Shown here one piece after another: positions 4,425-28,500 of a stretch of DNA of 64,000 bases. The position numbers were made by a program, and so were the translations under genes. Each line of letters starts with the position of its first letter. Position 1 is the first letter of the stretch. The DNA comes from Mobula hypostoma (taxonomy: Eukaryota): positions 172,052,001 to 172,116,000 of the forward strand of contig NC_086097.1 in assembly GCF_963921235.1 (NCBI RefSeq), given 5' to 3'. The notes under the pieces were generated by a model. That model was not told the DNA's origin, did no database searches, and saw only the letters and a program-made list of their open reading frames with translations.

Positions 4425-4720
4425 GAAAGACAGATGGTGGAGTCTGTGGCTGAACAAACTGCCAGAGGAACTCAATGGGCGAAGCAGATGCTGAGGAGGG
4501 AAATGGACAGTCGACATTTCAAGTCAAAACCCTTCATCTGTACTGGAAATGAGGAGATGGCCGGTATAAGGAAGTAAGGTGAAGGAGTGGAATAAAAGCT
4601 TGGTAGGCAATAAATAGGTGAGGAGGGATGATATGCAGATGGAGGAGGGGAGAGTGGAAGTAGTGACTAGGACTGAGAGGTGACAGGTAGAGGTGTCAAA
4701 GTGCTGGAGATGCCGGAATC
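4425..4720 (-). mobile_element. Penelope pseudo-LTR remnant, split by the Gypsy insertion (continues at 19862-20075)
   Basis: Decayed hammerhead/pLTR motif 'cagtcgacatttcaagtcaaaacccttcatctgtactgg'; the sequence resumes after the second GAATC TSD. Confidence 0.6.
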
Positions 4721-5174
4721 TGACAAGAGTCCAGTAGTGGCCCAAGAATAGAGGGAGAGATGCAATCCTAGAATTAACACTTAACTCAGATTTAATTAGA
4801 ACTGTAAAGAACAGAGAAAAATAGTAAACACTAGGGTAACTAAGAACTCTCAAACTAACTAAACACTCATGCCATAACCGTGGCTCAAAAGCAGTTACCT
4901 CAAAATAAATTTATGCTGCTCCTTTAACATCGCCTGGATAAAGCACGAGTCGTCTTTCTGGGAACGTGGGCAAAGGTAATCAGGGAGCGCGGTCATCGCA
5001 GTGCTTCAGTCAAGACTTGACAAGAGTGAAACAAAAGGAAGGGAGTTAAAAATTACAAGGAAACCCTAGTTGGCAGGGATGTGCATCCTCTCATGCATGA
5101 TTGCTGTCTCCCTCCTTCCAGCTGCCCACCTGCGAGGGTGCCCAGACTCCACAGCAGAGTCCACGTTTGTGACA
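4721..5174 (-). repeat. 3' LTR of element B
   Basis: Homologous to 19416-19861 (shared 'ccagctgcccacctgcgaggg', ends 'gtttgtgaca'). Confidence 0.85.
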
Positions 5175-7463
5175 ATATTTACAATATTATTCAAGTCTTA
5201 CAAAAATATTAAATACATAACCCTCCTCTATGTTTAGCTATAAAATCCAACACAATATAGAATGCATCTCAACTTATATACACAGTATACTACATAATAT
5301 AACTACTACTTAGGCATCCACAGCATCGTAAATTTTAGATTGTTCATTCATGCCTGAAGAGTTCATTGATATGTAGGATTTCTTACTCTTGTGGGATAAT
5401 GTCTTTCTTGACAAGTGGGGGGTGTAGGGGTCACTCTACTTGGCAGGTGAGATTTGAGGCTGTGAAGCAATCTCAGGCTCTGGGGCCTCCTCTGTGGTGA
5501 TGTAAGAGTTGACTACGGGACTGCAGGAAGTGGCTCTGACAGCACTGGCCACTGGCACATGTCGGCATTCCAAACAATGCATGTCAAGCTGCTCAATCTG
5601 CTAATCTCTGCCAGGCCACTAGACAACACTTCATGCCAACACTTTCGTTTTGACCATGCCTAGATGACCTTCAACACCTCAGCTCTCAGCTTGAATGGTA
5701 CAACAACTCGCAACCCCCACATAAGGCAACCACCATCAAGGGCAAGTTCATCGTTGCGGTAGTTAAAATGGGAGAATTGGAAATTCTGTTGCACATTCCA
5801 CCCATTTTGGATGGCTATGTAGACCTGAGACAGTGTGGGGACTTTTCTGGTTTCTCTTTGGATCTTCTCTGCTGTAATAAGTAGACTTTCAATTTGCATT
5901 AGAGAGAAGACATCAAGTGGAGTGTTCTATTTTGTAAATTTTTCATGTATTTCCTTTTCCAAGGGTAAACAAAACACATCATTTCCATGATTAGTCATCC
6001 TCTTGAATTCAATCTTACAATTGTGTCCTCCAGGGAGCGAAGCCCATCTCTGAATCTGTCCACTGCTATTAGTGGAACACTCTTCTGTGGATTGAAAATG
6101 GACACTGGTGGTTGATGTTCAAAAATGAGGGTAAGCTCTCTCCCAGCCTAGTTCTGAATGAAACATTGTACACCACAAACCATACTCAAGGTCTCTCTGT
6201 CAATCTGTGCATAATTTTCCTCTGCAGCAGTAAGCGAACATGATGGGGCATTCACTTTCAATACTCATTACATGTAACATACTGCATCTATTCAATAAGG
6301 CGATAAGACAGGGACCAATCCACAGGCAAGCTTCGCTGGACAAGTTGTATCATAATGTGTGAGTACAGTGTCTGACATCACCATTTTTTTGGTCTTTTGA
6401 AAAGCCAGCTCACATTGCTTTGTCCATTGCCATTTCAACCCAATCCGTAGTAATGAATTCAAGGGGTGGAGCACATTACCAGGTTTGGCAGGAAATTGCT
6501 ATAGTAATTAACAAACCCTAAAACGGGCTGCAACTGTGACATATCCTTTGACCTTGGGGTATCCACCAATGCTTGAATTTTCTCAGCACACTTTATGTAA
6601 TCTTTGAATGTCAATGGTGTGACCACAGTAAGTGATTATTGATTTAAAGAATTCACACTTGTTGCATTATGCTGTGAGCCCATAATCTTCTAATCTTTAT
6701 AACACTGTCTTGAGATTTTAGAGATGTTCCTTGTCATCCTTACTGGTAACAATGCTGTCACCCAGGTAACACTGAGTGCCTGAACAGCCTTGCAACACCT
6801 AGTTCATAACTTTCTGCCTGAGTGCAGGTGCAGATGCTGCTCCTAAAATTAGTCTATTATAGTGATAAAGCCATTCTAGAGCAAGAAACACTTTGGACTC
6901 TTCTTCCATCTCCATCTGTCAGCAGCTCTCAGCTAAGTTCACTTTGCTGAAGTGTTTCCCTCCAGAAAGGTTTGCCATGTATTCTTGAGAAAGGAATACC
7001 ATGTATTCTGAGCAGAGGGTATTGATCTACTTTCAGTACTGGGTTGATGGTTACCTTATAATCACCACAGATCCTGACAGACCCATTCTTCTTGGCTACT
7101 GTCCCTTCCTGCACTGTTTTTTTAATTGACCATTTCTCACTGATTTTTTTTTACATGAAAGACTTGTTGCACTTCAACAGGTCGTCATGGGATCATTTCA
7201 ATCTTTCTCATCATCATTGTAATGTTTTGTAGCTCCAAAACATAAAACTAATTGAAAGAAAAATGAGGGAGCCCGAGATGTGTGTAAATTTTGTTTATAC
7301 CTTTAGTGAGGTGCATATTTATGATGTGGTGATGTATGCCATTCATGTACATTTACTTGTAATGAATTATGTAAGTTAACAGTAATGAATTATGTAATCA
7401 AGCAAAGAACTCTTAATCATAAAACTTATTTACAATATTACTCAAATATTACTGAAGTATCAA

Positions 7464-18061: not shown

Positions 18062-18388
18062 CTAGCGGAAGTTAGAGAAGTCAATGTTCATGCCATCAGG
18101 TTGGAGGCTACCCAGACGGAATATAAGGTGTTGTTCCTCCAACCTGAGTGTGGCTTCATCTTTACAGTAGAGGAGGCCGTGGATAGACATGTCAGAATGG
18201 GAATGGGATGTGGAATTAAAATGTGTGGCCACTGGGAGATCCTGCTTTCTCTGGCGGACAGAGCGTAGATGTTCAGCAAAGCGGTCTCCCAGTCTGCGTC
18301 GGGTCTCACCAATATATAAAAGGCCACATCGGGAGCACCGGACGCAGTATATCACCCCAGTCGACTCACAGGTGAAGTGATGCCTCAC
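18062..18388 (-). pseudogene. Penelope GIY-YIG endonuclease domain (C-terminal part of the PLE ORF)
   Basis: FTCESTGVIYCVRCSRCGLLYIGETRRRLGDRFAEH...VATHFN...LEEQHLIFRLGSLQPDGMN. Confidence 0.9.
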
Positions 18389-18732
18389 CTGGAAGGACTG
18401 TTTGGGGCCCTGAATGGTGGTAAGGGAGGAAGTGTAAGGGCATGTGTAGCACTTGTTCCGCTTACACGGATAAGTGCCAGGAGGGAGATCAGTGGGGAGG
18501 GATGGGGGGGACGAATGGACAAGGGAGTTGTGTAGGAGCGATCCCTGTGGAATGCAGAGAGAGCGGGGGAGGGAAAGATGTGCTTAGTGGTGGGATCCCG
18601 TTGGAGGTGGCGGAAGTTACGGAGAATGTGGTCGAAAAGTTGAAGAGTCCTCCCCCTCCTGTCTTCTCCGATCATTTTGGATCTCCCCCTCCCCCTCCTA
18701 CTTTCAAATCTCTTACTCACTCTTCCTTCCGT

Positions 18733-20765: not shown

Positions 20766-22250
20766 CCCTATATCTTCCCTCTGTACTGTAAGTGACTACA
20801 CACAGCTTTAACATGAGAAAGGGCTGAAGGCACATGTGCCTCCTCCTCCTCTCACAGAGTGGAATGATCACACTCCTTGCAGTCTGCGCACCCAACAAAA
20901 ATGCAGATGTTCAAACTGCTTGCTCACGGGCTCACAGGCACTGACCTACATGAAGTGCCAGCTCACGAACACTGGCCCAGAGGATGCACAAACTCTAAAT
21001 CTCCTGCAAACTCATCCATCTTCCAGGAAGGTTATTAAGCTGAGGTTCCACTGAGCCTGCTCAGTCCCTGCAACTCGGCCATGTTGTTCCTTCTGTCTCC
21101 AATTCCCAGCATATTTCCAGCTGATTAAGCACCAGTCAGAATATCAACATTGCCTATTTTGGAAGTGAAACGCTGGAACACAAAGGACGGCTTGATCCTG
21201 GCCTCTTAGGAGCACAGAATTTGCAACGTGCATAAAAATATCTTTATGCAAGTGGGCGAGTGAGGGACTTAAAATAGAAACCAACAGCCTGTCAAAACGC
21301 AGTGGCTTCGAACTCATGGCTTGCAAGCATCACACAGGTGTAATTGTCAAAGGACACATGAAACAGAGCAAAATCTCAAATGTTAAATTAATGCTCAAGA
21401 CAAGGACACATGACAATAAACATCAACTGCTAAATAATCACCTGCAGGTCAAATGCACAGCCTTAATGTAATTTAACTGAACATGGTCTTATAATACAGT
21501 GGGCAGTATGCTTCAACATTGATTTAACAGAAGCACAAATACAGCATTCAAAAATAATTATTTCGCAAGTGGGGATAACTTATGTTGGCAGGATTCAAGC
21601 TCAGACAAATCTGACTTCTTGGAAGACTCTTGAGCCATAGCTGTCTATCAAGGTTTTTTTTCTTCATTTAACGCTTGGGGTATCTCTGTGGAGAAATGGG
21701 AGCTATGGTCTTTTCCCAGAGTCAGATTCAGATTTATTATCACCGGCATATGTTGTGAAATTTGTTTTCTTTGTGGCAGCAGTACAAGGTAATCCATATT
21801 TATAGAAAAAAAGCATGAATTACAGTATATAAAATTTAAAGTATATAGGTATGCAAAAATAAAAATTAAAAACTAGTGAGGTAGTGTTCATGGGTTTAAT
21901 GTCTATTCAGAAATTGGGTGGCAGAGGGGAAGAAGCTGTTCTTGAATCATTGAGTGTGCCTTTAAGCTTCTGTACCTTCTTCCTGATTGTCGAATTGAGA
22001 ACAAGACATGCCCTGGGTAATGAGGATACTTAATAATGGATGCCACCTTTTAGAGGCATTGCTCCATTGAAGGTGTCCTAGATACTATAGAGGCCATTGC
22101 CCAAGATGGAGCTGACTAAGGTTACAACCTTCTGCGGCTTATTTCGATCTTGTGCAGTAGCCCTCTCCCCACCATGCCAGACAGTGATGCAGCCAGTTTG
22201 AATGCTCTCCACGGTATATCTGTAATAATTTGCAGGTTTCTGTGGTGACA

Positions 22251-25200
22251 GAGTTACAAAATACACATGGACTAAGGTGTTAACTTTCCTGTGCTATCAC
22301 CAGTGGGATCATCAGTTGATCTGCCACCTGTCTTCAGGAGTTTCGGCCCGCTTATGATCAAGACTCCCTTGAGGTGGTGGGCCAGCAGTGCTAAAGCAGC
22401 ACCTCCCACTGGTGAGCTTAAAAGCTTGGCATCTGCCTCTATCAGAGTTGTTGGTCACTTCCATCCAACAGATAGTCTACTCTTCAGGTGTCTATGCAAC
22501 TACTGAAGGGTTTGCAAGATATGTCTACACTGTCTGACTATCTGCCCCTCTGGACATACTTGGTCCACACCCATGCTGATCCTTTCTCTGCTGCCTCAGC
22601 TACAGCCCTGCTGGTTGACTTGATCTCTCTTCTAGTGAAGCCAAGGTCACGCAGCCACTTCTGGAGAGTGAACACAATAAACCCACGGCAGCCTACTTCG
22701 AATGGATAGCATGAGACCTTCCACCCTCTGTCTCTGCACTCTGATCTGAACTCTGCATACTTGGTTAACTTGCGCTCATGGGCTTCATCGATGTTGTCTT
22801 CCCAGGGGACTGTGAGTTCACCAATAACCGCTTCTCTACTGCTGTCAGACCATACGATTATATCTGGACGCAGTGTTGTGAAAGCTATTTGCTCCGGGAA
22901 ACTGCCTTTCCCGTCCAGGTCAGCCTTGACACACCAATCATTGGCTGAAGAAAGTATGCTTGATCGTGAGCCTGTGCTGTACACCCTTGACTTGGAGCCT
23001 TCTTTCACAAATAATGTGCAATGTTCTGTGCAGCATGGGGCATGAGATAAGTTGTGCTGCAGTACTCTCTGCTCAATCGCTTCTGTCACAACTTTGAGAA
23101 TGTTGTTGTGTCTCCAAGTGTACATGCTGCTGGAAAGATTGACTCTGCATGCACTCAAGATATGTTGAAGTGTTCCCTTCTCGCCACAAGCAGCACACCT
23201 GTCTGTCTTATCTTCATACCAGGTGCTGAGGTTGGCAGGTGTTGGGAGCAGATCGTACGCTGCTCTGCATAAAAAAGAAATGCGGAGCGGTTCCATCTGC
23301 CACAGAACATTCCAAGATCGGTGTCATTGTTTAACACTTTCCCACCGGGTCCAAGCTCCTTGTTTGGCCAGGCCAGCTGTTTTAGTTAACCTCTTCTCCT
23401 CTTCTACCGCTCGTATTTCTTGTGTTACAAGCTCACAGCGCTCCTTACCTGTAGAAGATGACCACCACTTGTGGGTTGTCCATCCAAGTCCCTGGCGGCC
23501 TAGCTGGATAGCCCCAACCATCTCCTTGTGCTTCAATCTAGACTCTGCCTCATCAACTGCTACACGGGCTGACCACTTCCTGCCTGATCTCACATCTGGC
23601 TGGGTGTTCTTGATGACAGGGTCTTTTGAGTCTCGAAGCATCAAGAATGATCTTGCCTTGGCTACCTTGACTTCCTCAACAAGGGATTGCACTGGGATAG
23701 TAAGCTTTGTCTGGCTACTGTGGATTGCAACATTGGTGAGGCTGCTCAGTACTCCAAGCCACTTCTTCACATACTTGTTGATCTTCCGTTCCATTGCCTC
23801 AACATGGGACATTGTCACTTCATAGACAGTTAGCGGCCACATTATTCGTGGCATCAATCCGTACTGCAAGCACCACAACTTCAACTTGCCAGGCGAGCCA
23901 CACTTGTCAACAGACATCAGACTTCTGCTGATCTGTTCTGCTGTCTCTTGAACCCTCTTGGTGTCTCTCAGCTCCTCTGTGTACCATCGCCCGAGGCTCT
24001 TAACTAGTTGGTCCTGAATGGATGGAATCTCCTCTCCACAAAGGGTGAAATGAAAGTCAACCAGCTTTCCTCTCCTAAGAACAAGGCTCCTTGACTTCTT
24101 GGTCTTGAACTTCATTCTTCCCCAATCCATTAGCTCCTCGAGTCTAGATAGTACATTTTCCACTGCCTCCGTGCTGGGACCCAAAAGGGTAAGATCATCC
24201 ATGAATGCTCATATTGGTGGTAACTCCTCTCCACCATCAAGTGTGACACCAGGTCCCACTGATTCTACAGCCCTCACAATAACCTTCATAGCTAGCACAA
24301 AAAGGATGGGTGAAATTGCACATCCCATTGGGATTCCAACATCCAAGCTCTGCCACCTAGTTGTAAACTGCTGAGTGGAAAACGTCATCCGGAAATCGTT
24401 GTAGTACTGCATAACAAAGTTCCTCACCTTCGCAGGAATCCATAGGAATTCCATCACAAACTCAACCAGGACATGGGAAACAGAACCATACGCATTTGCC
24501 AGATCAAGCCAAACTACAGCCAGATTTCTTCTCAACCTTTTTGACTCCTGGATGGTATGCCATATCATACTAGAATGTACAAGGCATCCTGGGAAGCCTG
24601 GTATTCCTGCCTTCTGCACAGATGTATTTACTAATCCATTTTCAATCACAAATGAAGATATTCTTTCTGCCAGAATGCCAAACATAATCTTCCCCTCTAC
24701 ATTCACGAGTGAAATTGGTCGGAACTGATTCAAAGTAGAAGAATTCTCTTCCTTCGGGATGTATACTCCTTCAGCCTCACTCCATGACAAAGGAACAACA
24801 CCTTGTCTCCACACCACCTTTAACAATCTCCACAAGTATTTCCTCAGCTGTTCACACTTCTTGAACACCTTATACAGCACTCCATTAGGTTCTGGCACTG
24901 AGCCTGACCTTGCCTTTCTGATGAACCGTTCGACTTCTGCCAGTTTGGGTTCTGACAGATCGAACTTCACTCCTGGCCTGGTAGGCTTCACAAGCCCTGA
25001 AATGTCAAGCAAAGGAGCCTCCCACTGTTCGTTAGAGTAAGTGTTGCTAGGTGATCCTCAAGTTCTTGTTGAGAGATGTTAAGCTGCCCGCTCTTACTTT
25101 GTTCAAACAGTTTCTTTGTGAACTCGTGAGGGTTCTCAAAGAACGACTTTCTTGCCTTCTCTCTCTTCTTTCTCTTTTTACGTTGTGACTTTGCATGATG

Positions 25201-25570
25201 GAGTGATGCTAACTTTATTCGAAAATGCTCTTGGAGATCAGCAAGCCCTGGCTTGTCACCCTCACTTGCTACCTTCCACCTCTGTCTCAACGATCTAAGC
25301 TCTCTCCTCAACCTACTAATCTCCTTCTGGCGCCTGCTTGGTTGCTGTGTAGGCTTTGTTTTCTTCAACTCAACCAAACCAAACTTGTACTTTCCAACAT
25401 CGTAAATCATATCGCCCATCACTTCCAACTTTCTCTTTGATGTTCCCCGAGAGTGTTCTCCAACATCATACTGATATCCTCATCAAATACACGCCAAGCC
25501 TTCTCGTCTGCCATTGCTAGCCACTTGACCTTCCTCTTCTTCTCTACCTCCTTACCACCGCCACCACGCC
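22251..25570 (-). mobile_element. HERO-like (R2 group, restriction-like endonuclease) non-LTR retrotransposon, 5'-truncated and frameshifted
   Basis: RT (FRPISLVNVEGKI, WLDLANAYGSV, GIPMGCAISP, MDDLT), CCHC zinc finger (CAACGEKGTLQHILSAC), RHN, RPD...ELTVPW, K..KY RLE motifs; stop at 22538; 3' UTR 22251-22537. Confidence 0.88.
22302..22368 (-). ncRNA. Candidate non-circularly permuted hammerhead ribozyme in the HERO 3' UTR
   Basis: GGGAG-UC|UUGAUC-AUA-AGCGGG-CC-GAAA-CUCCU-(14 nt)-GAUCAA-CUGAUGA-U-CCCACU; stems I, II and III all pair. Confidence 0.65.
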
Positions 25571-28500
25571 ACCAAAGAACTGATTGTGGACTTCTGAAAG
25601 GGTAAGACAAGGGAACACACACCAGTCCCCATAGAGGGATCAGAAGAAAACATGACAATATTTTGTTAAAAGTTTGAGGAGATTTATTATGTCATGCTTT
25701 CTTTGTAGCTGCATCAATATGTTGGGTTTAGGATAAATCCTCAGAGATGTTGACACCGAGGAACTTGAAATTGCTCACTCTTTTCACTTCTGATCCCTCT
25801 ATGGGGACTGGTCTGTGTTCCCTTGTCTTACCCTTTCAGAAGTCCACAATCAGTTCTTTGGTCTGTATGCCCTCTCGTCACTATCTGAAATACTGCCAAC
25901 AATAGTTGTATTGTCAGCAAATTTAAAGGCAACATTTGAGTTGTGCCTAGCCACACAGTCATGGGTTTAGAGAGACTAAAGCAGTGGGCTATGCAAACAC
26001 CCCTGAGGTGCGCCAGTGTTGATTGTCAGCAAGGAGGAGATGTTATTTCTGATCTGCACAGATTGTGATCTTCTGATCAGGAAGTTGAAGATCCAGTTTC
26101 AGAGGTCCAGGTTTTGGGGCTTTTCGATCAGAACTGCAGAGTTATAGTGTTAAATGCTGAGCTGTAGTCTATAAATAGCATCCTGACATAGGTATTTGTA
26201 TTGTCCAGGTGATCCAAGGCCACAGGAAGAGACAATACGATCACATCTGCAATGGACCTATTGTGGTGATAGACAAATTGTAGTGGATCCAGTTCCTTGC
26301 TGAGACAGTAGAAAATTCTAGCCATAACTAGCCTCCCAATAACTAGACCGGACAAAGGGTCTCGACCCGAAACGTCAACTGTACTTCTTCCTATAGATGT
26401 TGCCTGGCCTGTTGTGTTCCACCAGCATTTTGTGAGTTTTTCTCAAAGCATTTCATCACCATAGATGTGTGGTCTACTGGACAATAGTTGCTATGACAGC
26501 ACACCTTGCTCTTCTTGGGCACTGGTATAATTGTTGCCCTTGTGAAGCAGATGGGAACTTCTGACTGTAGCAATGAGAGATTGAAAATGTTTTTGTACAC
26601 TGCTGCCAGTTGGTTGGCACAGGTACTCCATTGTGGCCTGTCACCTTGCGAGTGTTCATCATCCTCTTGAAAAACAGCCTGACACTGGCTTCCAAGAAAG
26701 GGATCACAAGGTCACTGGGTGCTGCAAGGATCCTCAGAGCTGTAGTTTTATTCCACCTTTCAAAGCATGCATAAAGGCATTGAGCTCATCTGGGAGTGAA
26801 GCATCACTGCCACTCATGATGTTGAGTTTCGCTTCATAGGAAGTAATGGCCCGCAAACCCTGCTAGAGTTGACGTGCATCCAACTATGCCTCCACCCTTG
26901 TTTGGAATTATGCCTTTGCTCTTGAGATAGGCACCATAAGTCTTACCGGTTTTTTTTCTACAGGCCTGTGCTGCCAGACCTGAATGCCACAGATCTAGCC
27001 CTCAGTGGACTCCTAGTTCATCCATGGCTTTGGATTTGTGCAAGTACAGTAAGTTCTCAGATACACACTCATCCACACAGGTTTTAATGAAGTCAGTCAC
27101 AGCTGTGGTGTGCTTATTCAAACTCAAAGATGAATTCCTAAATACTGTCCAGTCCACCAATTCAAAGTGGTCCTGTAAGTGCTCCTGAGCCTCCCTCCTC
27201 CAAACCTTCTTGGTCCTTACTACTGGCGCTGCTGTCTTCAATCTCTGTCTATATGCAGGCAAGTGATCAGACTTTCCAAGGTGTGGGTGTGGGATAGGAC
27301 AATAAGCACTCTTAATGGTGGTGTAACAGTGGTTCAGTGTGTTGGTTTCTCTGATACTACAAATGATTTGTTGGTAAGAATTATTTGGAGACTTTTTCAA
27401 GCTGACCTGGTTACAATTCCCCAGAATGATAGGGAAGGCATCAGGATATTTTGTTTCATGTCTGTTTATTATGTTGCTCAGTTCATCTAGAGCCTGGTTT
27501 ACTCTGGCCTGAGGTGGAGTGTACACTACTATCTAGATGATCGCTGAAATCTCCCACAGCAGATAAAATAGAGGACACTTAATTGTGAGATGTTCCAGAT
27601 TGGGACAGCACCACAATGTTTGTACACCACAAGGTATTGATCATAAAGCGTACTCCACTTCCTCTGCCTTTGAAAGACTCAGTAGTTCCATCTTGGTGGT
27701 GATCTGTGAAGCTATCAAGCTGTATCACTGCATCTGAAATAGCGGGGGATAACCAAGATTCCGTGAAACAAAAACTACAATGGCTTTTACTATCACTCTG
27801 TTTAAGCAATCTAGTTCTGAGATCTTTGATTTTATTTACTAGAGACTGTACAGTTACCAGCAAGGTGTTTCTCTTGGAAGCTGAAAGCCACGCTTTCTTA
27901 AACAAACTTTTAAGTCAGAACGGCTTCCTCTCTTCTGCTGTGTTACAGGGAACTACGCTAGTGACCGGAGTTTGTGTGAGTTTTGTCAACTTTGTGTAGG
28001 GATAGATTTTTTAATCACGTTAAAACAATATTACTAGCTATACAGACCATAGTGGCTGTGGTTCTCAGCTGTAGCAGACCAAAATGGGAATATTTGCTGT
28101 TTTCCATCGGAGCTGCTCGCATGAGTTGCCTTCTTGATGGTGCCCCTGAAGTGAAATGGAAAATGGAATCAAAGAATAGAGGGTATGGGTTACAACAAGG
28201 GAAAAGATTTTAAAGGGACCAAAAAAGAAACTTTTTCACACAGAGTCATGGGGGTAGGGGATGGTGGTGGTGCATTTCTGGAACAAACTGCCATGGAAAA
28301 TGGTTGAAGCAGGCACAATAACAAAATTTAATGAACAGTTTACGGAAAGAAAAGATGTGAAGGGATGTCGACCAAATGCAGGCAAATGAAACTAGTTGAG
28401 ATGGTCATGTTGTCAGCGTGGCTGAGTTGGGCTAAAGGGCCTGTTTCCATGATTCTGTTCAGTTAGATGAGGGGATAACAGTAGGCTGTTGATAAGATCC

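Follow-up and report, generated by a model that had tools for sequence, protein, structure and literature searches.

A candidate split-core hammerhead ribozyme in the 3′ non-coding tail of a HERO-like retrotransposon of Mobula hypostoma

The 3′ non-coding tail of a HERO-like retrotransposon in a 64,000-nt stretch of the Mobula hypostoma genome (assembly GCF_963921235.1, contig NC_086097.1, positions 172,052,001 to 172,116,000 of the forward strand; hereafter the window, in whose own numbering all coordinates are given) contains an RNA fold that is probably, with a likelihood of about 0.85, a hammerhead ribozyme of undescribed topology. Its helices and their covariation are observed directly in this copy and its relatives, and cleavage is predicted from them. 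Published hammerhead forms are built from three blocks, C, G, and S, which were assumed to be uninterruptible and thus give six possible orders (Eckert 2023, PMC10085705; cited papers are represented, here and below, by the portions of their text that were accessible). One of these forms, type SGC, cleaves in vitro and was found in metatranscriptomes only, with none in the genomes of known organisms. The fold described here is a type-SGC RNA whose natural ends are joined via a kink-turn and whose chain is opened between A9 and G10.1, and its topology lies outside the six published orders. From 5′ to 3′ the strands follow the order P0a, hairpin, IIa, PKa, IIIa, UH cut, Ia, linker, IIb, GAAA, IIIb, PKb, Ib, CUGANGA, P0b (Table 1), where PK denotes the interaction (pseudoknot) helix.

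An initial annotation had proposed a pseudoknotted, non-circularly ordered hammerhead at this locus. The letters that it quoted match the minus strand exactly at 22368-22302, and stem I (UUGAUC/GAUCAA), stem III (GGGAGU/ACUCCU), the GUC triplet, GAAA, and CUGAUGA are all present. The cut that it predicted, between 22362 and 22361, is located 176 nt past the stop codon of the broken reading frame (22540-22538) and ~112 nt short of the element end at ~22250. Its placement past the coding region of a HERO-like element, in the 3′ tail, is likewise supported, the HERO label being one that we infer from domain content, the lack of target specificity, and host range. A pseudoknotted, non-circularly ordered hammerhead-like RNA is conserved with covariation among distant relatives, but it does not have the plain S-G-C topology of the published type SGC. 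The structure covers 22415-22297 instead of 22302-22368, and the 3-nt linker of the earlier model falls with its wrong stem II, the linker between stems I and II being 6 nt long. That model also lacked P0, the inserted hairpin, the interaction helix, the kink-turn pattern, and the layout of longer-than-unit copies. The actual fold, which splits block C between A9 and G10.1, is further from the known forms than the earlier model.

Covariation was assessed in 37 sequences aligned by MAFFT after the removal of 8 near-duplicates. In this set a stem II formed with the upstream strand GGCCC was 94.1% paired and showed 43 two-sided changes, and none of 500 shuffles was as good; controls in which the strand was slid were 24-55% paired. 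The first pair of this helix, the canonical G10.1-C11.1, is G-C in 34 sequences, G-U in two, and something else in one. The stem II of the initial annotation, AGCGGG/CCCACU, did not hold: the two pairs at its base were paired in 31% of cells across the 37 sequences, and 83 of 500 shuffles scored as high. Five-pair versions of this helix, in three registers, were paired at 0.38-0.48 within a locus versus 0.38-0.43 between loci, and the swap test showed no gap for the downstream strand. The upstream helix behaved differently when strands were swapped between loci, its pairing dropping from 0.97 to 0.62. The corresponding values fell from 0.98 to 0.49 for stem I, from 0.98 to 0.73 for stem III, from 0.98 to 0.50 for the interaction helix, and from 1.00 (175/175 cells) to 0.47 for P0, which was compared in 25 loci. 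Covariation was found in the relatives for all three stems, the true partner in stem II being the upstream GGCCC. A search that asked for stems I and III but left stem II free matched 48 of 81 sequences; a stem II of at least 4 bp could be formed with the upstream strand in 45 of these 48 and with the downstream strand in six.

The core follows the rules of known hammerheads in most respects. Position 17, at which G was permitted, is C in 18, U in 14, and A in 13 of 45 sequences and is never G, nor does G occur there in any of 12 relaxed matches, in agreement with the NUH rule (H not G). The cut triplets among the 37 sequences are GUC (15), GUU (11), GUA (10), and AUA (1), and the pair G16.2-C15.2 is kept in 36 of them. 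The distal contact between stems I and II is provided by the interaction helix, whose role in three dimensions would correspond to that in type SGC. A direct or 1-2-nt link between A9 and G10.1, which is common to all alignments known to Eckert 2023, is absent: A9 runs into P0 and G10.1 follows the inserted hairpin. The strand CCCACU, used for stem II in the earlier model, is part of the 12-bp helix P0 formed with 22415-22404. P0, the hairpin, and the upstream stem II are compatible in one predicted nested fold, and P0 and the hairpin may stack, with a crossover into the core that resembles a four-way junction.

Kink-turns consist of a canonical helix, a 3-nt bulge, tandem G-A/A-G pairs, and a second helix. 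The joiner that leads from stem III to the interaction helix shows this pattern in 23 of the 37 loci (22 of them with a 3-nt bulge), versus a mean of 1.9 for shuffled joiners, of which none in 1000 reached the observed number. A kink-turn at this position would bring the far end of stem III to the tips of stems I and II and so account for a link that was flagged as unexplained for type SGC and left open (PMC10085705). The majority sequence of the window family has the pattern. In the window copy an A at 22370, where 67 of 77 copies have G, breaks the tandem G-A, and a C at 22399, where 71 of 77 have G, causes one mismatch in the hairpin; because of these minority bases the fold may be weaker in the window copy than in the family at large.

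Table 1. Features of the HERO-like element and of the predicted RNA fold in the window.
Feature	Position	Strand	Remarks
HERO-like coding region (reverse transcriptase, zinc knuckle, C-terminal restriction-like endonuclease)	22538..25571	-	two stops and one frameshift
P0 5′ strand UCACCAGUGGGA	22404..22415	-	12 bp with 22308-22297; pair probability 0.66-1.0; closes the whole fold
Inserted hairpin	22384..22403	-	flush between P0 and G10.1; outer pair flush in 23/25 loci
Stem II 5′ strand GGCCC, G10.1 = 22383	22379..22383	-	94.1% paired, covariation
Interaction (pseudoknot) helix 5′ strand CCACCU	22372..22377	-	181/185 cells paired; non-canonical helix of the kink-turn
Kink-turn short strand	22369..22371	-	CGA in 67/77 copies; CAA in the window copy
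Stem III 5′ strand GGGAGU, U16.1 = 22363	22363..22368	-	U-A in 37/37 (descriptor requirement)
Predicted cut, C17 (22362) / 22361	22361..22362	-	structural analogy
Stem I strand past the cut, UUGAUC	22356..22361	-	181/185 paired versus 0.49 swapped
Stem I-stem II linker AUAAGC	22350..22355	-	1-8 nt among relatives, 6 in the window
Stem II 3′ strand GGGCC (C11.1 = 22345) and core GAAA (G12 = 22344)	22341..22349	-	
Stem III 3′ strand ACUCCU	22336..22341	-	
Kink-turn long strand: 3-nt bulge GAA, GA, C	22330..22335	-	pattern in 23/37
Interaction helix 3′ strand AGGUGG	22324..22329	-	
Stem I 5′ strand GAUCAA (22321-22316) and core CUGAUGA (C3 = 22315, A9 = 22309)	22309..22321	-	
P0 3′ strand UCCCACUGGUGA	22297..22308	-	directly after A9, offset 0 wherever P0 was found
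Remaining tail to the fixed 3′ end	22250..22296	-	no poly(A); joined to the 5′ start in longer-than-unit copies

A full descriptor of the fold had this locus as its sole match on both strands of the window, with a score of 59, and yielded 3 matches with a best score of 39 in 200 random 64-kb strands of the same dinucleotide frequencies. The sequence-only pattern matched once in the window, versus 0.07 matches expected. No Rfam family matched in the window at the gathering score, and none matched in 8 relatives at an E value of 0.5. Two other structures were considered and rejected. A second CUGAAGA (22337-22331), if taken as the core, lacks a stem I strand and overlaps the kink-turn, and a GAUCA/UGAUC hairpin over the core, seen in a short-window fold only, disappears when P0 is included.

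The fold is widespread among HERO-like elements. An alignment of 16 proteins retrieved the best 80 of 322 related metagenome loci, and the fold is present in 56 of these 80, in 44 of them strictly (exact core) and in 12 in a relaxed form with one core change or imperfect stems. GAAA and CUGANGA are search criteria of the descriptor, yet both motifs are visible at the same spacing in the raw tails of the loci. Among the 24 other loci, 15 end within 200 nt and are too short to judge, and five carry a degenerate version: L034, L095, L106 (covariance model), L107, and L109 (by eye). The covariance model, R1, captures only 11 nested pairs and was used purely for sensitive searching. The proteins of the carriers are 31-100% identical (median 41.5%) and scattered over the protein tree, which is a quick version and not a finished search. 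The core and stems I and III of the initial annotation are conserved across distant relatives. The same fold also occurs in a second family of the M. hypostoma genome, with 14,456 candidates and proteins 40-42% identical to that of the window. In the protein tree this second family (L281) groups as sister to the metagenome locus L043 on short branches; the tails of the two are nearly identical, and this closeness may reflect horizontal transfer. No relative was found in viral contigs.

The inserted hairpin shows a peculiarity of its own in some relatives. Its loop contains a 6-nt palindrome (UGAUCA, UGGCCA, or GACGUC) in 16 of 25 loci, for example L043, L044, L050, and L061, as against none of 2000 shuffles. 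The second family (L280-L309) has such a palindrome and the window family lacks it. Such loops suggest dimerisation through loop-loop contacts.

The window copy of the element is truncated at ~25571, so that ~540 nt of the 5′ part of the family are absent. A Pfam scan recovered RVT_1 (E 1e-12), with zf-RVT below the cut-off, and no GIY-YIG family. Identity of the C-terminal piece is 58-71% with the eleven best homologs, of which the named ones come from lancelet (62-64%) and sea urchin (61%), and 40-47% with many fish and mollusc proteins. The hosts of the best homologs agree with the host range of the HERO clade (PMC9004415). The closest solved proteins to one homolog (P0004) are R2 and LINE-1. 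An alignment of the relatives contains invariant C-C-H-C and RPD...E.K residues, the latter of which we take to be the restriction-like nuclease motif. The family is young, as 40 scored of 2,595 candidates are 97-100% identical, with one at 90%. It ends at ~22250 without poly(A), its 77 distinct 3′ flanks share no common target by eye, and target-site duplications are mostly absent (at least 7 nt in 5 of 50 copies, one of them convincing). About eleven different internal deletions join window positions 25216-25388 to 22511-22876 (in L004, L007, L010, L119, L121, L128, L170, L180, L181, L260, and L269); they are not due to splicing, because all breakpoints differ.

The last 90 nt of the HERO tail (window 22340-22250), but no more of it, are also carried by a long terminal repeat (LTR) element (L201-L220), where they form the end of every LTR. 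This element has ~890-bp repeats with TG...CA ends and a 4-bp target duplication (L330:410-1299 and 4503-5394; L331), a gag-like frame on the other strand, and 502 pattern matches in the genome (G000). A look for RNA evidence yielded no run recorded as RNA that contains the stretch; four runs compared with it consisted of contigs, which do not reveal RNA ends, and a jump in their depth over the last 90 nt is explained by this LTR family.

The layout of the genomic copies adds a further line of evidence. All 30 loci picked by sequence upstream of the cut run through it, and all 30 picked by downstream sequence extend above it, the two sets sharing some loci. Nine of 30 loci picked by the start of the open reading frame (ORF) reach the 5′ start of the family, and each of the nine is preceded by a piece of the 3′ end. 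When 30 loci were picked by the 5′ start itself, 28 carried their own 3′-end copy in front according to BLAST; one of the remaining two has ~14 nt of a 3′ piece by eye and the other is truncated inside. The upstream 3′-end pieces in this last set are 19 to at least 1,483 nt long, and 16 pass through the cut site. Their starts are spread over 22271-23734 with none at 22361, that is, without a pile-up at the cut. The junction between the 3′ and 5′ ends is constant in all such copies and contains no added bases, the unit measures ~3.86 kb, and the terminal repeat is up to 1,693 nt long. For 26 of the 29 insertions with both ends that were retrieved, the two ends of one insertion differ by 4.5%, versus 6.1% between insertions, and the ends of one insertion have 0.0117 non-consensus bases per nt in common versus 0.0029, a fourfold difference (0 of 2000 permutations). 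The second family shows the same arrangement, with four of 20 long copies reaching the 5′ start and all four carrying an upstream 3′ piece. Among the metagenome contigs, 7 of 44 show the ribozyme followed by a HERO N-terminus, and ribozyme sequence precedes the ORF in L038, L042, and L052. One back-joint was found in one contig, not at the cut site.

Two kinds of sequence were noticed around the junction and the tail. Repeats of ~21 nt (RGUGAC...GGAAAGAC-like), one to four in number, follow the 3′/5′ junction in both M. hypostoma families and in 10 metagenome loci examined (for example L176:972-1040 and L318, and after the ribozyme in L061, L063, L064, L070, L082, and L099). They could be a binding signal for the reverse transcriptase (RT) just downstream of its start, or encode a 7-residue peptide repeat. 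Upstream of the ribozyme, 40-130 nt past the ORF, L058, L064, L076, L099, and L105 contain tRNA-like stretches with a B-box (and an A-box in four of the five), and a polymerase III promoter for the next unit is possible. In 12 loci whose tails were suspected to be tRNA-like, ARAGORN reported no tRNA, and neither did Rfam.

We propose that the RNA from cut to cut is ligated to a circle and copied from an internal site in the manner of Penelope-like elements, a model to which we give somewhat better than even odds as a whole. The non-coding segment would be both the 3′ and the 5′ untranslated region (UTR). A longer-than-unit locus would be transcribed through two ribozymes, and cutting at both would release a unit-length RNA of ~3.86 kb, whose ends, held by base pairing through P0, II, PK, and III, could then be ligated. 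The RT of the element would start from one constant internal position, ~112 nt beyond the cut, and travel round the circle for more than one turn, producing the next longer-than-unit copy. The helices, the core rules, the copy layout, and the constant junction are observed, whereas every step at the RNA level is one that we infer.

Several points weigh against a cleaving ribozyme or against the circle. Cleavage, ligation, and circle are all derived from the fold and the copy layout, and an RNA that does not cleave would just as well leave the cut site intact in all copies. The accessible text of the literature searched contains no example of a natural hammerhead in which A9 and G10.1 are separated by a helix, and the core would have to tolerate such a helix; the single U after A9 in the SGC pattern (PMC10085705) indicates that this link tolerates at least one extra base. 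The covariation sets were picked by a descriptor that asks for these stems, and the kinship of the sequences inflates the shuffle controls. The variety of pair types therefore carries the weight, together with two features that the descriptor did not demand, position 17 and G16.2-C15.2. In the run with a free stem II, the upstream search window was wider than the downstream one. The pair G10.1-C11.1 is missing from L032 and L033, L035 and L048 carry U3, nearly all copies of the second family have one mismatch in stem III, and four metagenome loci with sufficient sequence show no trace of the fold. By eye, the related loci L095 and L107 seemingly lack the stem III 5′ strand and the cut site with the rest kept, and are a possible non-cleaving subfamily. 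As to the copies, several insertions do not rank their own end first, the shared end variants could alternatively be due to gene conversion, or to readthrough when the two ends of a source locus are alike, and the metagenome contigs may be collapsed repeats.

The same structural evidence would fit an active ribozyme that gives rise to no covalent circle, an outcome that we regard as less likely than the circle. Such a ribozyme might free a 5′ end, which may start cap-independent translation as in the case of the hepatitis delta virus (HDV)-like ribozyme of R2, or leave a nicked, paired pseudo-circle that is jumped by the RT, or the templates might stay uncut. The ribozymes of R2 and L1Tc work without a circle (PMC6765202), and four helices spanning the cut would keep the ends together without ligation. 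However, if the template were nicked or had a linear 5′ end, copies starting at the cut would be expected; all 30 loci extend beyond it, and the upstream pieces show no pile-up there. Uncut longer-than-unit transcripts would fit the intact cut sites, yet from linear templates the terminal repeat would shorten with each generation, contrary to its observed length. Considerably less probable is a non-cleaving fold that docks the RT of the element, its hammerhead-like letters being a relic or a coincidence. The cut site is intact in every genomic copy, the fold adjoins the RT start site, and the R2 protein binds a pseudoknot in its 3′ UTR (PMC12222951), all as docking would have it. P0 does exclude the earlier stem II, but it conflicts solely with that helix, as the upstream strand gives a canonical stem II compatible with P0. 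Moreover, docking gives no reason why the core, G10.1-C11.1, G16.2-C15.2, and the exclusion of G at position 17 are kept while the stems change, and where the 3′ half alone was captured by the LTR element, the core CUGAUGA is altered in 18 of 20 loci (probably few events). Docking and catalysis need not be mutually exclusive.

The earlier model, a type-SGC hammerhead with stem II taken from the strand after CUGAUGA, can hardly be upheld. Its block order S, G, C and its short linker between stems I and II do match type SGC (PMC10085705), and five of its six stem II pairs can be drawn in the window family alone. However, this helix shows no covariation, has a pair probability of 0 against P0, and provides no G10.1-C11.1, and the published SGC patterns need CUGAUGAUG or CUGAUGAG where the window has CUGAUGAUC (PMC10085705). 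A hammerhead with its core split between A9 and G10.1 is the preferred reading of the fold.

With respect to novelty, a literature search found no text joining 'hammerhead ribozyme', HERO, and retrotransposon, and a full-text search did not find the phrase 'between A9 and G10.1', Repbase Reports and most subscription papers being outside the scope of both. Neither a HERO ribozyme nor a split core appears in the accessible text of PMC7650587, PMC3088659, PMC13580325, PMC4640811, PMC9004415, PMC2632901, PMC13725137, PMC10162972, or bioRxiv 10.64898/2026.07.22.740005, and the terms 'kink' and 'k-turn' have no match in that of PMC10085705. Hammerhead variants with additional helices were reported earlier according to PMC13725137 (citing Weinberg 2015 among others). 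The novelty surmised in the initial annotation is accordingly divided: the order S-G-C is already published as type SGC, so that the form drawn there is known in kind and would be new for an animal genome, and a ribozyme in HERO was not found in the literature searched. Tentatively, at slightly less than even odds, the locus represents a seventh hammerhead topology that is split in the core, braced by a kink-turn and a four-way junction, and HERO-wide in animal genomes, and HERO would be the first LINE-type clade with a restriction-like nuclease to replicate through a ribozyme-made circle, copied from an internal site so that its pseudo-LTRs are regenerated.

For RNA catalysis, the split core would break the stated assumption that CUGANGA and stem II form a contiguous block, and pattern and covariance searches are blind to this form because they assume contiguity. 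The fold would also place a non-circular hammerhead in animal genomes, with more than 1000 candidate sites in one genome and many natural variants. For LINE-type elements, the accepted view is that copying begins at the 3′ end of a linear template RNA; the longer-than-unit copies, with their constant junction, instead suggest a route like that of Penelope or retrozymes within the R2-related group, which is under development for gene insertion.

Elsewhere in the window, an inverted repeat of ~73 bp (25571-25645 and 25779-25851, by eye) is located just 5′ of the truncated HERO copy, within the remains of another element. Two sets of short frames on the minus strand, 18062-18583 and 26128-27914, presumably resemble the GIY-YIG nuclease end of a Penelope-type element and a decayed LINE RT/endonuclease, respectively.

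Among known systems, type SGC (HRIMA-1 and variants, PMC10085705) is the closest in structure. It shares the order S, G, then CUGANGA, a short linker between stems I and II, a helix tying the other sides of these stems, the double pseudoknot, and an interruption after A9. In contrast, the HERO-like RNA is opened at A9/G10.1 with the 5′ strand of stem II coming first, not after CUGAUGA(U), and its P0, hairpin, and kink-turn have no counterpart in the accessible text of PMC10085705. In the layout of its copies the element resembles Penelope-like elements (PMC6765202, PMC11167929), which likewise have partial-tandem copies, a hammerhead within the repeat, a fixed 3′ end, and no poly(A), and for which a circular template was proposed; the pseudo-LTRs of Penelope were ascribed to internal RT initiation (PMC11167929). 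Penelope-like elements, however, combine a telomerase-like RT and a GIY-YIG nuclease with minimal type I hammerheads, whereas the RT of the HERO-like element is R2/L1-like, its nuclease motif is of the restriction-like kind, and its ribozyme candidate is large and pseudoknotted. With the HDV-like ribozymes of R2 and L1Tc (PMC6765202) it shares the presence of a ribozyme in a non-LTR retrotransposon, R2 belonging to the same restriction-like-endonuclease group. Those ribozymes are HDV-class and located at the 5′ end, where a single cut yields a linear RNA, and the HERO-like candidate is hammerhead-class and occurs twice, past the stop codon and once more ahead of the ORF. Two hammerheads bounding a unit are also known from retrozymes, whose circles accumulate and were proposed as the RT template (PMC4918200; bioRxiv 10.64898/2026.07.22.740005); unlike these non-coding, non-autonomous elements with type I or III hammerheads, the HERO-like element encodes its own RT and nuclease. 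Finally, the restriction-like endonuclease, the lack of target specificity, and relatives in lancelet, sea urchin, and fish agree with the HERO clade as described (PMC4640811, PMC9004415), in descriptions whose accessible text makes no mention of a ribozyme, a terminal repeat, or a circular template.

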